Source: Escherichia coli (GTDB taxonomy: Bacteria > Pseudomonadota > Gammaproteobacteria > Enterobacterales > Enterobacteriaceae). Taken from it: DNA of 5,887 nt. Made by a program: the position numbers and the translations under genes. The DNA is taken from NCBI RefSeq assembly GCF_003334815.1, contig NZ_QOWO01000070.1, one strand, 5' to 3'. Below, in pieces: positions 1-5,835 of this stretch. Position 1 is the stretch's first letter. The number at the start of each line of letters is the position of its first letter. The notes under the pieces were generated by a model, which saw nothing but the letters and a program-made list of their open reading frames with translations, ran no database searches and was not told where the DNA came from.

Positions 1-95
1 ATCGACGATTGCTGGAAAGGCTGGGCCATACTCCTCCGGCAGAAGCAGAAAAAGCTTATTATGCTTCCATCGGAAACAATGATCTGGCAGCCTGA
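1..95 (+). CDS. C-terminal 31 codons of IS3-family transposase OrfB (partial; 5' end outside window)
   Basis: Reading from base 3 gives RRLLERLGHTPPAEAEKAYYASIGNNDLAA then TGA at 93..95. This is the same as the C-terminus of the 290-aa ORF at 3770..4642 except for one D to N change. Confidence 0.8.
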   Translation, partial: RRLLERLGHTPPAEAEKAYYASIGNNDLAA

Positions 96-112
96 GTTCA
101 CAGATAAAACAC

Positions 113-137
113 TCTCCAGGAAACCCGGGGCGGTTCA
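113..137. repeat. Terminal inverted repeat (IRR) of IS629-like copy 1, about 25 bp
   Basis: The reverse complement of the terminus, TGAACCGCCCCGGGTTTCCTGGAGA, matches the IRL at 5811 (TGAACCGCCCCGGGAATCCTGGAGA) at 23 of 25 positions. Exact IR length is approximate. Confidence 0.65.
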
Positions 138-145
138 CTTCCCAA

Positions 146-179
146 CCATAATATTTCTGTCATTTCTGCCCCCTATTAT
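146..179 (+). promoter_or_regulatory. Putative promoter of the phytase-like gene: a perfect Pho-box half-site CTGTCAT (157..163), a 10-bp spacer, and a -10-like TATTAT (174..179)
   Basis: CTGTCAT is the 7-bp PhoB half-site consensus, and its spacing to the -10 resembles PhoB-dependent promoters. The distal half-site (146..152, CCATAAT) is weak, and no canonical -35 is present. Confidence 0.25.
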
Positions 180-226
180 GACGTTGTTTTTACTTCTGAG
201 CGATAACAACGAAAAGAGACAATGAC

Positions 227-1570
227 ATGCACAACTCCAAAATCCGACAAGCTGTACTGGTTGGATGCATGACGCTGAGCGCTAACCTGTGGGCCGAAGC
301 GCAGCCGGTGCAGGCAACGCTGGCTGGGCATGCACTGTTGCCAGTAACATCCGCCGTTTCAACTCCGAAGGATGCGCCGAGCGATCTGCAACAGAGCGGC
401 AAATACACCAGCGGCAAACGCGTCACCGAGCTGGGCAGCGTGGCGGGCAAATCCGCAGATCGTCTGACTGGACTCGGCCTGCCGATCAACGGTCAGCCGT
501 TGCAGGGCCACTCAGGTATCAAACACATGCCCGACGGTACCTACTGGGTGCTGACTGACAACGGCTTCGGCAGCAAAGCCAACTCCCCGGACGCCATGTT
601 GTACCTCAACCACTACAAAATCGACTTCAAAGACGGCACGGTAGTACCGCTGAAGACGCTTTTCCTGCATGATCCGGATAAGAAGGTACCGTTCCACATC
701 ATCAACGAGAGTACCGAACAGCGCTATCTGACCGGCAGCGATTTTGATCCCGAAAGCTTCCAGTTTTCCGACAATGCCTTATGGATCGGTGATGAGTTCG
801 GTCCTTACCTGATCAAGACCGACCTGAACGGCAAGGTGCTGGCGGTGTTCGATACTGAAGTGGATGGAAAGGTGATTAAATCGCCGGACAACCCGACGCT
901 GACCCTACCTGGCGCGCCGGACGGCAAGCAGAATTTCCAGGTTGCGCGTTCCAAAGGCTTTGAAGGCATGGCCATCTCGCCGGACGGCAGTAAGCTGTAT
1001 CCGCTGTTGGAAGGGGCATTGTGGGACGGTGAGCAGTTCGAGAACGTTGGCGGAAAACGCTACCTGCGTATGCTGGAGTTCGACGTCAAACAGCAGGTCT
1101 GGACTGGTCGCAGCTGGCAGTACGTGCTGGAAGACAACCAGAACGCCATCGGCGACTTCAATATGATCGATGACACCCACGGGCTGGTGATCGAGCGCGA
1201 CAACGGCGAAGGCACTACGGATAAAGCCTGCGTCGTCGGTGCGCCGACCAACAACTGTTTCAGTCAAGTAGCCAAGTTCAAACGAGTGTATAAAATCGCT
1301 TTCTCGGACACTAACGTCGGTAAACCTGTCGAAAAACTGAGCTATATCGACCTGATGAATATTCAGGATCCGAACAAGCTGGCACGCAAGCCGCTGAGTG
1401 ACGGTGTGCTGACCTTCCCGTTTGTCACCATCGAGAACGTGGATGTGGTTGACGCGAACCACATTATTGTAGGCAACGATAATAACTTCCCGTTTTCCTC
1501 CAGCCGCTGGCCTAATATGGCGGATGACAACGAGTTTATTCTACTTAATGTGAAGAATTTTCTGAAGTAG
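227..1570 (+). CDS. Sec-secreted phytase-like beta-propeller protein (esterase-like activity of phytase type family), 447 aa; function uncharacterised
   Basis: Long ORF with an N-terminal Sec signal peptide (hydrophobic core LVGCMTLSANLWA followed by EAQ) and a weak RBS (AAGAGA) 8 nt upstream. Repeated motifs (DNGFG, GDEFGP, FEGMAISPDG, ERDNGEG, GNDNNFPF) look like the phytase-like fold. The family call is from memory, not a search. Confidence 0.7.
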   Translation: MHNSKIRQAVLVGCMTLSANLWAEAQPVQATLAGHALLPVTSAVSTPKDAPSDLQQSGKYTSGKRVTELGSVAGKSADRLTGLGLPINGQPLQGHSGIKHMPDGTYWVLTDNGFGSKANSPDAMLYLNHYKIDFKDGTVVPLKTLFLHDPDKKVPFHIINESTEQRYLTGSDFDPESFQFSDNALWIGDEFGPYLIKTDLNGKVLAVFDTEVDGKVIKSPDNPTLTLPGAPDGKQNFQVARSKGFEGMAISPDGSKLYPLLEGALWDGEQFENVGGKRYLRMLEFDVKQQVWTGRSWQYVLEDNQNAIGDFNMIDDTHGLVIERDNGEGTTDKACVVGAPTNNCFSQVAKFKRVYKIAFSDTNVGKPVEKLSYIDLMNIQDPNKLARKPLSDGVLTFPFVTIENVDVVDANHIIVGNDNNFPFSSSRWPNMADDNEFILLNVKNFLK

Positions 1571-1792
1571 GGGGGAGATCATCTCATCGCTTACCTTAAA
1601 ACTATCATAAGGGTTTACTTCCCTTCAGCGGCGCACAAGGCGCAGGCTTCTGGCTTTCAGTCTTATCCAGGAGGAACATACTGAAAGGCCTGAGTAAACA
1701 TGAATAAAAGGAATATTATATAACAGATGATTCTAAACCACGCGACAAAGCGTTGAAGGAAGCCTGCGCGCAGCATGACGGGGCTTTACCAT

Positions 1793-1826
1793 AAAAAAAC
1801 GCAGGCTAACCGCGCCTGCGTTTTTT
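1793..1826. terminator. Bidirectional rho-independent terminator shared by the convergent phytase-like gene and phoX
   Basis: A perfect 8-bp GC-rich stem (ACGCAGGC at 1799..1806 pairing with GCCTGCGT at 1814..1821) with a 7-nt loop, flanked by an A7 run (1793..1799) and a T6 run (1821..1826). It lies 20 bp downstream of the phoX stop. Confidence 0.8.
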
Positions 1827-1845
1827 ATGACGGATGAAGCAGAAA

Positions 1846-3825
1846 TCAGGTGCCGATCATACCGCCGTCGGCTTTCACGATAACGACGGTTGAGGAACGC
1901 GGACGACTGGCCTTATCGCCGTCGGGCCAGCTTGATACTGCCGTCGGATGCTGCGGATCGCTCAGCCCTTCGGCTGGCTCGCCAGGGTGCTGGATGTTAA
2001 TAAACAGCGTCCGGTTATCCGGCGTGAACGCGATGCCGGTGATTTCGCAGCCACGCGGGCCGGTCAGGAAGCGGCGAAACTCGTTGGTACCGGGGATCGT
2101 CGCCACCATCTGGTTGTTGCCCATGCCTTCGTAATCTTTACGGTTGATGGTTGATGACGACACGTCGGTCTGGATCCACAGCACGCCGCGGTGATCGAAG
2201 CTCAGGCCGTCGGCGCTGCCGAATTCCGCGCCCTTCATGCTACCTTTGGCTTCCGGTTTGTCAGTATCGGTGCGACCGCCCATCACCAGAATATCCCAGG
2301 CGAACTGCAGCGCGGTCGGGTCGCCGTTCTGCTCCAGCCAGTGAATGATGTGACCGTAAACGTTTTTGCCGCGCGGGTTGGCCGCATCCACCGGCGCTTT
2401 GCCTTCCTTACCGCGATCGCTGTTGTTGGTGAGCGTGCAGTAAACGCTGCCTGTGTGGTATGGATCAACCGCAATCCACTCCGGGCGGTCCATTTTGGTG
2501 GCGCCCACGGCGTCTGCCGCCAGACGGGTTTTAATCAGCAGGTCGCCCTGGTTTTCAAAGCCTTTGCTGGCGTCAAGCCCGTTTTGGCCGAACACCAGCG
2601 GTAGCCACTCGCCTTTGCCGTCATCGTTAAATTTCGCCACATACAGCGTGCCTTTCTCCAGCAGGCGCATGTTGGCTTTGCGATCCCGCGGGTTGAATTT
2701 GCCTTCCGAGACAAATTTATAGATGTATTCGAATTTCTGGTCATCGCCCATATAAACCACAACGCGGTTATCCGGGGCGAGCGTCACCGCCGCGCCTTCG
2801 TGCTTGATGCGGCCAAGCGCGGTGTGCTTGCGCGGCACTGAATGCGGATCGTATGGATCGATTTCCACCACCCAGCCGAAGCGGTTCGGCTCGTTCGGCG
2901 TGACGTCAACGCTGAAACGCTTATCCACTTCGTTCCAGCGGTAAGAGCCGTCGCTGTCGCTGATGCCGTAACGTTTTTCCAGCGGGTTCATCTCCGCTTT
3001 TTTCACGAAAATATCGGACCAGTTCTCTTCGCACGTCAGATAGGTGCCCCACGGCGTAAAACCGTTGGCGCAGTTCTGCATGGTGCCGAGAATGGTTTCG
3101 CCTTTCGGATCGTCAGCCGTTTGCATCAGCGGGTTATGCAGCGCCGGGCCGGTGATTTTCATCGGCGTGTTAACGGTGATGCGGCGCGCGAAAGATGACG
3201 GGCGCACCACTTCCCAGCCCTGGGCCGCTTTTTTTACTTCAATGACCGACACGCCCATTGCGTTCTGTCCTTTCAGCGCTTTATCAGCGCTCCAGTTGGC
3301 ATCGCCATCTTTAAACAGCAGACCGTTATCGATGTATTCATGGTTCATGGCGAGCAGGCCGTGATCGACGCTGTGCCCGCCCTGCGGCAGGCTAAACCAC
3401 GCCATACCGTCGTGGTGCATCCCGGCCTGCGCCGCCTGCTCTTCCGTGGTGTTGCTGCCGTCGGTTTTAAAAACCGGCTGATTCCCGGCAAGCCCGGTGG
3501 CGTCGCCCCATTTGTATAAGGGCTTCGCGATGTAGCCTTCCGGCACGATAACGGTATCTTCCGTGGAAACCGGCAGACTGGTGAAACCGAGCGCCGTCGC
3601 TTTGCCGAGGTTACCGCTTACGCTGGAGACCGCTTTCGCCAGCGCGTTTTCCGGTTTCAGCAGAAACGGGAACGTTGCCGCGGCACCGGCGACCGCGCCT
3701 GTCTGTAACAGGCGGCGGCGCGACAAATAGACTTCCGCCACCTGCGAAAACGCGCGGTTATCACTCGGGTTGCTGGTCTCTTCACTATGCTCACGTTTGA
3801 ATAAAGTTTTTAACGATCTGCCCAT
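1846..3825 (-). CDS. phoX: PhoX-family alkaline phosphatase/phosphodiesterase, Tat-exported, 659 aa
   Basis: N-terminal twin-arginine motif LSRRRLLQTGAVAGAAATFPFL followed by an AxA-type cleavage region (ALAKA). Size and beta-propeller-like composition are typical of PhoX, including a WGTYLTCEENW motif. An RBS (AAGGAAA) lies about 8 nt upstream of the ATG at 3825. Confidence 0.8.
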   Translation of the reverse strand: MGRSLKTLFKREHSEETSNPSDNRAFSQVAEVYLSRRRLLQTGAVAGAAATFPFLLKPENALAKAVSSVSGNLGKATALGFTSLPVSTEDTVIVPEGYIAKPLYKWGDATGLAGNQPVFKTDGSNTTEEQAAQAGMHHDGMAWFSLPQGGHSVDHGLLAMNHEYIDNGLLFKDGDANWSADKALKGQNAMGVSVIEVKKAAQGWEVVRPSSFARRITVNTPMKITGPALHNPLMQTADDPKGETILGTMQNCANGFTPWGTYLTCEENWSDIFVKKAEMNPLEKRYGISDSDGSYRWNEVDKRFSVDVTPNEPNRFGWVVEIDPYDPHSVPRKHTALGRIKHEGAAVTLAPDNRVVVYMGDDQKFEYIYKFVSEGKFNPRDRKANMRLLEKGTLYVAKFNDDGKGEWLPLVFGQNGLDASKGFENQGDLLIKTRLAADAVGATKMDRPEWIAVDPYHTGSVYCTLTNNSDRGKEGKAPVDAANPRGKNVYGHIIHWLEQNGDPTALQFAWDILVMGGRTDTDKPEAKGSMKGAEFGSADGLSFDHRGVLWIQTDVSSSTINRKDYEGMGNNQMVATIPGTNEFRRFLTGPRGCEITGIAFTPDNRTLFINIQHPGEPAEGLSDPQHPTAVSSWPDGDKASRPRSSTVVIVKADGGMIGT

Positions 3826-4642
3826 TGCGGTTTCCTTTCAAAAAATCGATTTCAAGGGGAATCATTTTTATGCACGTGAGTCTACGGAAAGTATGTTACA
3901 GAAATATAATGAGATACAGCGCGTATACGATGAAAATCATCAGGTGTACGGTGTGCGTAAAGTCTGGCATCAGTTGTTACGGGAAGGAATCAGGGTGGCC
4001 AGATGTACAGTGGCGCGCCTCATGGCGGTTATGGAACTTGCCGGTGTTCTCCGGGGTAAAAAGGTCCGCACAACCGTCAGCCGGAAAGCCGTTGCCGCAG
4101 GCGACCGCGTAAACCGTCAGTTCGTGGCAGAACGTCCAGACCTGTTGTGGGTGGCTGATTTTACTTACGTCAGCACATGGCAGGGCTTTGTTTATGTGGC
4201 GTTCATCATTGATGTGTTTGCCGGATACATCGTGGGATGGCAGGTCTCATCGTCCATGGAAACGACATTCGTGCTGGATGCACTGGAGCAGGCGTTGTGG
4301 GCCCGTCGGCCGTCCGGCACAATTCATCACAGCGATAAAGGCACTCAGTATGTATCGCTGGCCTACACGCAGCGGCTTAAGGAAGCCGGATTACTGGCAT
4401 CAACAGGAAGTACTGGTGACTCGTATGACAACGCGATGGCGGAGAGCATCAATGGTCTTTACAAGGCGGAGGTAATACACCGTAAGAGCTGGAAAAACCG
4501 GACAGAAGTGGAGCAGGCCACACTCACGTGGGTGGACTGGTATAACAATCGACGATTGCTGGAAAGGCTGGGCCATACTCCCCCGGCAGAAGCAGAAAAA
4601 GCTTATTATGCTTCTATCGGAAACGATGATCTGGCAGCCTGA
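3770..4642 (+). CDS. IS3-family transposase OrfB (DDE integrase core), 5'-truncated fragment; the first 45 or so codons of this ORF are not IS-derived, so it is probably non-functional
   Basis: DDE-type motifs are present (WVADFTYV, HHSDKGTQYVS, AESINGLYKAEV) and the C-terminus LERLGHTPPAEAEKAYY is typical of IS3-family OrfB. There is no upstream orfA or frameshift window, and the ORF's 5' end overlaps the phoX start on the other strand. Confidence 0.8.
   Translation: MLVSSLCSRLNKVFNDLPIAVSFQKIDFKGNHFYARESTESMLQKYNEIQRVYDENHQVYGVRKVWHQLLREGIRVARCTVARLMAVMELAGVLRGKKVRTTVSRKAVAAGDRVNRQFVAERPDLLWVADFTYVSTWQGFVYVAFIIDVFAGYIVGWQVSSSMETTFVLDALEQALWARRPSGTIHHSDKGTQYVSLAYTQRLKEAGLLASTGSTGDSYDNAMAESINGLYKAEVIHRKSWKNRTEVEQATLTWVDWYNNRRLLERLGHTPPAEAEKAYYASIGNDDLAA
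3864..3901 (-). promoter_or_regulatory. Candidate phoX promoter: -10-like ATAAAAAT with a weak Pho-box-like CTGTAACATACTTTCCGT about 12 bp upstream (on the phoX-sense strand)
   Basis: Position and spacing relative to the phoX ATG are plausible. The proximal half-site matches the consensus poorly. The site lies at the junction with the truncated IS copy. Confidence 0.2.
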
Positions 4643-4684
4643 GTTCACAGATAAAACACTCTCCAGGAAACCCGGGGCGGTTCA
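3905..4684 (+). mobile_element. 5'-truncated IS3-family (IS629/IS1203-like) copy 2: the 3' roughly 60 percent of the element, with IRR but no IRL and no orfA
   Basis: Recognisable OrfB sequence starts around EIQRVYDENHQVYGVRKVW (about 3911) and runs to the terminus ...CGGTTCA at 4684. Upstream of about 3905 the DNA is the phoX 5' region. The left boundary is approximate, give or take about 15 bp. Confidence 0.8.
4660..4684. repeat. Terminal inverted repeat (IRR) of IS629-like copy 2
   Basis: Same terminus as 113..137. Similarity to 1..137 ends exactly after TTCA at 4684. Confidence 0.65.
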
Positions 4685-4705
4685 CAATTTTCTTCAACTG
4701 CAGGA

Positions 4706-5810: not shown

Positions 5811-5835
5811 TGAACCGCCCCGGGAATCCTGGAGA
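5811..5835. repeat. Terminal inverted repeat (IRL) of IS629-like copy 3
   Basis: Matches the reverse complement of the right-end termini at 23 of 25 positions. Confidence 0.7.

Follow-up and report, generated by a model that had tools for sequence, protein, structure and literature searches.

Organisation of the locus

The window, by which we mean the whole 5,887-nucleotide stretch of Escherichia coli DNA that was analysed, shows 100% identity to the E. coli plasmid pJNE25-005_2 and carries a phytase-like gene, a convergent phoX gene and insertion sequence (IS) material on either side of them (Table 1). The two gene segments are separated by a 158-bp filler (1585–1742), and the hairpin that lies between the two genes is probably a terminator working in both directions. 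The ORF translation of phoX contains a twin-arginine signal motif (SRRRLLQTG).

Table 1. Features of the 5,887-nucleotide window and their positions.
Feature	Position	Strand	Basis or remark
Right end of full-length IS3-family element (IS629/IS1203-like)	1–137	+	repeat D1, inverted repeats I1/I2
orfB stop codon (first IS, right end)	93–95	+	
Terminal inverted repeat (first IS, right end)	113–137	+	
Junction spacer CTTCCCAACC	138–147	+	no conservation with Serratia/Yersinia
Pho box (predicted), 18-mer CCATAATATTTCTGTCAT	146–163	+	best matrix match in the window, 14.3 bits
Distal half-site CCATAAT (degenerate)	146–152	+	
A/T spacer ATTT	153–156	+	
Proximal half-site CTGTCAT (perfect)	157–163	+	
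-10 hexamer TATTAT	174–179	+	10 bases past the proximal half-site
Predicted 5' untranslated leader	186–226	+	transcription start near 186, placed from the -10 position
Conserved leader block TTTTACTTCTGAGCGATAACAAC	188–210	+	13-sequence alignment
Purine-rich ribosome-binding stretch	~213–219	+	inside the predicted leader
Phytase-like gene (447 aa, secreted PF13449 beta-propeller protein)	227–1570	+	start codon ATG at 227
Hairpin between the two convergent genes	1797–1817		A and T runs on flanks; minus-strand terminator-like site and direct reading
phoX (PhoX-family alkaline phosphatase)	1846–3825	-	annotation and ORF translation
phoX promoter (predicted)	3879–3912	-	TCATTAT-ATTT-CTGTAAC (3895–3912), 10 bases, TAGACT (3879–3884)
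Second copy of the same IS, 5'-truncated	3911–4684	+	orientation as the first; annotated incomplete, N-terminus missing
Right inverted repeat of the second IS copy	4660–4684	+	
IS66-family fragments	between the second IS copy and 5811		
Inverted left end of a third IS629-like copy	5811–5835		repeat analysis

The annotation of pJNE25-005_2 describes the element at the left of the window as an IS3-family transposase with a programmed frameshift, and related copies of this IS are annotated as IS1203 or IS629. Its terminus had been set at position 137 in the initial annotation, and this is right: the element ends in ...CCCGGGGCGGTTCA, in agreement with the second copy, which ends at 4684, and with the inverted left end at 5811–5835. 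The sequences that follow the two copies part directly after GGTTCA, and terminal inverted repeats of the form TGAAC...GTTCA are present, with 113–137 and 4660–4684 both pairing with 5811–5835. The left end of the full IS copy lies at position 4692 of locus L001. The spacer that follows the IS at 137 is partly common to other Escherichia plasmids and to the E. coli chromosomal allele of the phytase-like gene.

[quoted passage not shown] A sequence search of the PDB and NCBIfam with this protein yielded no matches, and a Foldseek search of the model against the PDB returned only generic beta-propellers, DFPase among them, with TM scores of 0.3–0.4; a specific functional assignment can therefore not be made. 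In the cyanobacterium Nodularia, phosphate limitation strongly induces a distant PF13449 protein (PMC9846622), and orf34 of the Shigella SRL island also belongs to the family (PMC6980539). No report on expression or PhoB binding of the phytase-like PF13449 family in Enterobacterales was found in the literature, and what is mentioned from Campylobacter was not informative.

The predicted promoter of the phytase-like gene

The 89 bases between the IS terminus and the ATG at 227 had been read as holding a promoter with a perfect PhoB half-site (CTGTCAT, 157–163), a -10-like TATTAT (174–179) and a degenerate distal half-site (146–152). All of these elements were found where they had been placed: exactly 10 bases (164–173) lie between CTGTCAT and TATTAT, and the distal 7-mer, CCATAAT, matches at four of seven positions and starts at the ninth base past the IS end. 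The 7-mer CTGTCAT is by itself near chance and not significant, occurring once in the window versus 0.56 times expected, and at least once in 83 of 200 shuffles. No match to the 18-bp Pho consensus was found in the window at up to three mismatches, the 18-mer at 146 having four (14 of 18 positions matching, counted by eye). A -35 hexamer is absent at the expected place, where positions 150–157 read AATATTTC and match TTGACA at no more than one of six positions; a missing -35 element is typical of PhoB-activated promoters. A sigma-70 promoter scan of 138–226 predicted nothing, which is to be expected because the promoter would be activator-dependent, and the same null result also argues against a hybrid promoter.

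To score the site, a position matrix for PhoB was built from the 43 ChIP-chip sites in Table 2 of PMC3465305, with which the 18-mer at 146 attains 14.3 bits and ranks first of the 11,740 positions on both strands of the window. This score is reached somewhere in 9.7% of shuffles of the whole window, and in 0.3% of sense-strand shuffles of the 89-bp region. ChIP-chip sites whose distal half is weak have scores in this range, e.g. yahA (CATTAATATATCTGTGAC, 14.8 bits); phoE (ATTTATTAAATCTGTAAT) and yfdE (GATTAATAAAACTGTAAT) have the same weak-distal layout with higher scores (17–19 bits). The second-best matrix match, AAGTAAAAACAACGTCAT (13.7 bits), is situated at 178–195 on the minus strand, inverted over the -10 hexamer and the predicted start; Serratia and the E. 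coli chromosomal allele share this match, more distant genera do not. When the matrix was made from six classical sites only, the 18-mer at 146 came second in the window with 10.8 bits; the best window match of that matrix (13.7 bits) is TTACCTTAAAACTATCAT at 1591–1608, within the filler and without a plus-strand gene downstream. An Rfam scan for a leader RNA gave no match. The leader block at 188–210 is conserved from Serratia to Yersinia, and partly in Entomohabitans (TTTTTACCTTTGG).

Conservation of the predicted promoter among orthologues

Relatives of the phytase-like protein were retrieved by scanning one genome per species, which yielded 80 loci spanning amino-acid identities from 93% (Serratia marcescens group) to approximately 65% (Betaproteobacteria). 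The DNA of these loci was scanned, anchored on the protein match, for the strict motif nTGT[CA]A[CT]-N10-TAnnnT. Of the 80 orthologues, 32 have this motif upstream in the sense direction, which does not amount to 32 independent events since the loci are phylogenetically related, and the motif occurs five times on both strands of the remaining 1.07 Mb of the loci (~0.0014 per 300 nt). Carriers are found in at least eight genera (Serratia, Yersinia, Citrobacter, Entomohabitans, Providencia, Halotalea, a Neisseriaceae MAG and Polaromonas), and the distance from the motif to the start codon is fixed, at -81 to -84, in Serratia, Yersinia, Citrobacter and Entomohabitans.

The upstream sequence reads ATAATATT(T/A)CTGTCA(T/C)-N10-TATAGT in Serratia and Yersinia, AGGTCAT-ATTT-CTGTCAT-N10-TAATAT in Entomohabitans and AAATCAT-ACTG-TTGTCAT-N10-TATATT in Citrobacter sp., while in Providencia this place is occupied by three half-sites in 11-bp phase (CTGTCTT-aatt-CCATCAC-taaa-TTGTCAT), followed by N10-TATGAT. 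The distal position reads nnGTCAT in Entomohabitans and in Serratia sp. AKBS12. The -10 hexamer varies (TATAGT in Serratia and Yersinia, TACAAT in the E. coli chromosomal allele, TATGAT in Providencia) and always lies 10 bases past the proximal half-site. In an alignment of 13 sequences TGTCA and the T-A of the -10 hexamer are invariant, with unrelated sequence upstream of the distal ATAAT, and at most Enterobacterales loci the site is the single best matrix match of a locus of about 7.3 kb (~14,600 positions).

Within Serratia and within Yersinia the whole 80-bp leader is conserved; conservation in these two genera is therefore not specific to the box, and it is the genera further away that carry the argument. 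The layout is kept in genera in which the surrounding non-coding DNA has fully diverged, which provides good evidence for an old Pho-regulon membership of the phytase-like family, with 146–179 as its predicted promoter. Alignment of the upstream region with IS-free orthologues, which the initial annotation had proposed as a check, places a Pho box at the matching position, and the same layout and the same distance to the start codon recur in IS-free orthologues of many genera. The Pho-box/-10 reading is thereby upheld, and a PhoB-dependent promoter appears well supported by these comparisons. Separately, a perfect 19-base palindrome (GCTATCAATTATTGATAGC; locus L026, 2921–2939) was observed in the leader of the Providencia orthologues, between the -10 hexamer and the start codon, and is missing from the Serratia/Escherichia lineage.

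The IS borders the predicted promoter

The initial annotation had raised the possibility that insertion of the IS cut into or changed the upstream part of a PhoB-dependent promoter. When the window is aligned with IS-free chromosomes of Serratia and Yersinia, nucleotide homology sets in at 147/148, where the conserved ATAAT begins, and runs to the stop codon, with the IS end ten bases further out; the IS thus lies just outside the conserved block. At the distal half-site, CCATAAT of the window corresponds to GAATAAT in Serratia, to GGATAAT in Yersinia and to TCATAAT in the E. coli chromosomal allele, which is free of IS629, and with a uniform background the box scores 13.4 bits in the window, 13.9 bits in Serratia and 13.9 bits in the E. 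coli chromosomal allele. Since the same nnATAAT and equal scores are found in IS-free genomes, the weak distal half-site is ancestral, and the suggestion of a clipped box finds no support. The chromosomal allele referred to here is a 93% allele of the phytase-like gene that is matched on the chromosomes of 225 out of 5,426 complete E. coli genomes; these matches start at window positions 144–147, beyond the IS end. In a representative chromosome the box reads TCATAATATTTCTGTCAT-N10-TACAAT and is preceded by an IS110 remnant, and the promoter has no IS629-like end beside it. The loss of a third upstream half-site, such as that of Providencia, was also considered and rejected, the IS629-free E. 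coli allele reading CCCTACC at that place (two of seven matches, by eye). PhoB activates transcription via sigma-70 region 4 and has no need for DNA upstream of its box, so that an IS at about -49 would be expected to make no difference. As judged from these alignments, the putative promoter is bordered but undamaged by the IS.

Six plasmids, that of the window included, carry the 99% allele with differing IS junctions, and the phytase-like gene is intact in all of them. Junctions were compared at window positions 134–147, at locus L002 (4990–5010) and at loci L086, L087, L088 and L089. They consist of a right-end IS remnant of about 170 bp followed by ATCCCT(G/T)CCCAACC (E. albertii and two E. 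coli plasmids), a 14-bp IS-end remnant with IS1 behind it, a full IS whose right end is followed by CTTCCCAACC (this window), or a full IS in reversed orientation whose left end is followed by CTGCCCAACC. Because these contexts differ, no common IS-derived promoter is possible; weak transposase read-through into the phytase-like gene may occur, and is needed by nothing observed. An IS629-like terminus was seen 9–13 bases upstream of the conserved promoter block in the six plasmids, in both orientations. The four bases ATCC are present at some junctions and absent from others, a difference seen with the G allele as well as with the T allele.

A target duplication of 3–4 bp was sought at the full IS, and its left flank (...GCGCAG) and right flank (CTTCCC) did not match. 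The junctions are therefore taken to derive from later rearrangement rather than from a single clean insertion, of which the inverted copy in locus L088 likewise bears no sign. The full IS sits in the first codons of an IS911-like orfA (atgaaaaaaagaaatttcagcgcag followed directly by TGAACC...; locus L001, 4670–4700). IS629 is subject to excision-enhancer-mediated deletions of 1–7 flanking bases and to partial deletions of the IS (reviewed in PMC9330008); such deletions would fit both the presence or absence of ATCC and the IS remnants, with renewed insertion beside an old IS end as an alternative source of the junction variants. The recurrence of IS629-like ends near the promoter may reflect selection for retention of the promoter, or targeting of the IS beside an older IS end.

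phoX and its association with the phytase-like gene

[quoted passage not shown] The predicted phoX promoter of the window has the same layout as that of the phytase-like gene and shares 14 bases with 147–160 (inverted repeat I7). Its distal half-site reads TTGTTAT in E. coli chromosomes versus TCATTAT in the window (as compared with loci L084, 5140–5170, and L090, 4655), the junction of the truncated IS at 3908–3910 having swapped TTG for TCA, and the box score drops from 13.4 bits in the IS-free chromosomal copy to 9.1 bits in the window. The IS junction is located at about -49 for the phytase-like gene and inside the distal half-site for phoX; on these sequence grounds, the clipping idea is true of the putative phoX promoter and not of the phytase-like one.

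No phoX gene was found within 3 kb of the phytase-like gene at any of the 80 chromosomal orthologue loci (L004–L083), which rules out phoX as its native neighbour; in S. marcescens the phytase-like gene lies between a CynX-like transporter gene and an integrase gene. The phytase-like/phoX pair (138–3910) has the appearance of a mosaic between two direct IS629-like copies, one full and one 5'-truncated, and the outer left and right IS ends could in principle move the whole unit. On a 21.5-kb E. coli chromosomal island (NZ_CP184839.1, 83000–104500), phoX is found together with an orphan ugpB, an IS110 pseudogene and the 93% phytase-like allele, and three of the four best matrix matches of the island lie upstream of the phytase-like gene, phoX and the orphan ugpB. 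The latter displays six half-sites in 11-bp phase (CCGTCAC, CTGTCAT, CTAACAC, CTGTCTA, ATGTAAT and AAGTTAT; locus L090, 14377–14438). It is conceivable, though we would put it forward only tentatively, that the phytase-like gene and phoX constitute a portable, PhoB-plugged phosphate-scavenging cassette of two unlinked genes with IS629-like bounds and minimal promoters; if so, the unit would come under host phosphate-starvation control in any new Escherichia host.

Proposed regulation and alternative explanations

The region 146–179 probably serves the phytase-like gene as its native, PhoB-dependent promoter. When phosphate is limiting, the phosphorylated PhoB of the Escherichia host would bind CCATAAT-ATTT-CTGTCAT head-to-tail, anchored by the perfect proximal half-site, while the weak, A/T-rich distal half-site would be filled cooperatively. 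The box would stand in place of the missing -35 element, and PhoB would recruit the sigma-70 holoenzyme to TATTAT, ten bases downstream; initiation near 186 would then give a leader of about 40 nt and expression of the secreted beta-propeller protein, a member of a phosphoesterase-like family. The gene and its minimal promoter probably came together from a Serratia-like donor, in which case the IS629/IS1203-like end at 137 (about -49) would represent the edge of the mobilised segment, with the box left whole. PhoB binding, induction by phosphate starvation and the start of transcription are what we infer here for the phytase-like gene.

Expression that is mainly driven by the IS, either through transposase read-through or from a hybrid promoter composed of TTCACT (135–140), an outward -35-like hexamer of the IS end, and TGTCAT (158–163), a resident -10-like hexamer, is unlikely. 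It would accord with the position of the IS end, which is only 89 bases from the start codon and in the orientation of the gene, with the lack of a predicted plus-strand terminator from the orfB stop codon (93–95) to the phytase-like gene, and with the capacity of IS3-family ends to form hybrid or junction promoters. However, a junction promoter scan revealed no site reaching nine of 12 matches, and the best hybrid identified by eye (TTCACT-17-TGTCAT) attains eight of 12 and lacks the A at position 2 of its -10 hexamer. Furthermore, sister plasmids retain the intact 447-codon gene behind the 14-bp remnant (IS1 behind), the ~170-bp remnant or the opposite left end, with no single IS-derived signal common to them, and the 225 E. 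coli chromosomes match from 144–147 only, the representative having its IS110 remnant upstream and no IS629-like end. The IS-supplied read-out that the initial annotation had offered as a further possibility is likewise unsupported, there being no predicted junction promoter and no constant IS context among the sister plasmids.

The remaining explanations concern the identity of the motif itself. If TGTCA were the site of another regulator, this could be a different response regulator of the OmpR/PhoB family or a factor acting on the imperfect inverted repeat TGTCAT-N14-ATGACG (158–183), an idea to which the inverted arrangement of the second-best matrix match (178–195, minus strand) with the box lends itself, as does the fact that PhoB-like matrices also catch CusR and HprR sites (cusR and yedW in the ChIP table of PMC3465305). 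Yet the inverted partner is kept only in Serratia and in the E. coli alleles, more distant orthologues have direct repeats in the 11-bp phase that is the signature of PhoB, and both the gene family and its island neighbours phoX and ugpB have phosphate-scavenging functions, all of which render another regulator very unlikely. A chance occurrence of the CTGTCAT/TATTAT pair in an A/T-rich intergenic stretch, with no regulatory role, would be in line with the single CTGTCAT of the window, about as many as expected, and with the four mismatches to the full consensus; such a coincidence is nevertheless very unlikely, as TGTCA and the 10-bp gap to TAnnnT are invariant across genera with fully diverged flanks and the motif has the low background given above.

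Discussion

The promoter predicted for the phytase-like gene resembles classical E. coli Pho promoters (pstS, phoA, phoB, phoE and ugpB) in that the place of the -35 element is taken by a box, here a putative direct repeat with an 11-bp period, whose end lies 10 bases ahead of the -10 hexamer, and in that the downstream gene encodes a secreted, putatively phosphate-scavenging enzyme. As in phoE (ATTTATTAAATCTGTAAT; PMC3465305), one good half-site is combined with an A/T-rich degenerate one. In contrast to pstS, phoA and phoB, the distal half-site of the window is weaker (14.3 versus 21–23 bits for the box), and, unlike the classical promoters, that of the phytase-like gene has a single box with a predicted PhoB site and is situated on a plasmid-borne, IS-bounded segment. 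The locus is also reminiscent of gene activation by IS3-family elements, as an IS3-family end lies less than 100 bases upstream in the orientation of the gene; it differs from such cases in that neither an outward nor a hybrid promoter can be made out convincingly, the resident promoter is ancestral and has all its parts, and the IS at the junction varies by plasmid. Similarly to Pho-regulated phoX genes, the adjacent phoX has a box of the same layout, and the two genes make up a small phosphate-scavenging pair, although the pairing of phoX with the phytase-like gene is secondary (0 of 80 loci).

In the case of phoX, the distal half-sites TTGTTAT and TCATTAT constitute a natural pair for gauging the share of the distal half-site in PhoB activation. 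The phytase-like promoter is an ordinary, tidy case that leaves the understanding of PhoB and of IS biology unchanged. It would illustrate that a gene moved by IS elements between plasmids and genomic islands can keep host-independent regulation in as few as about 35 bases of promoter, and it places the phytase-like propellers of PF13449 among the likely members of the Pho regulon in Enterobacterales and in some Betaproteobacteria, which offers a useful hint to the function of this family.
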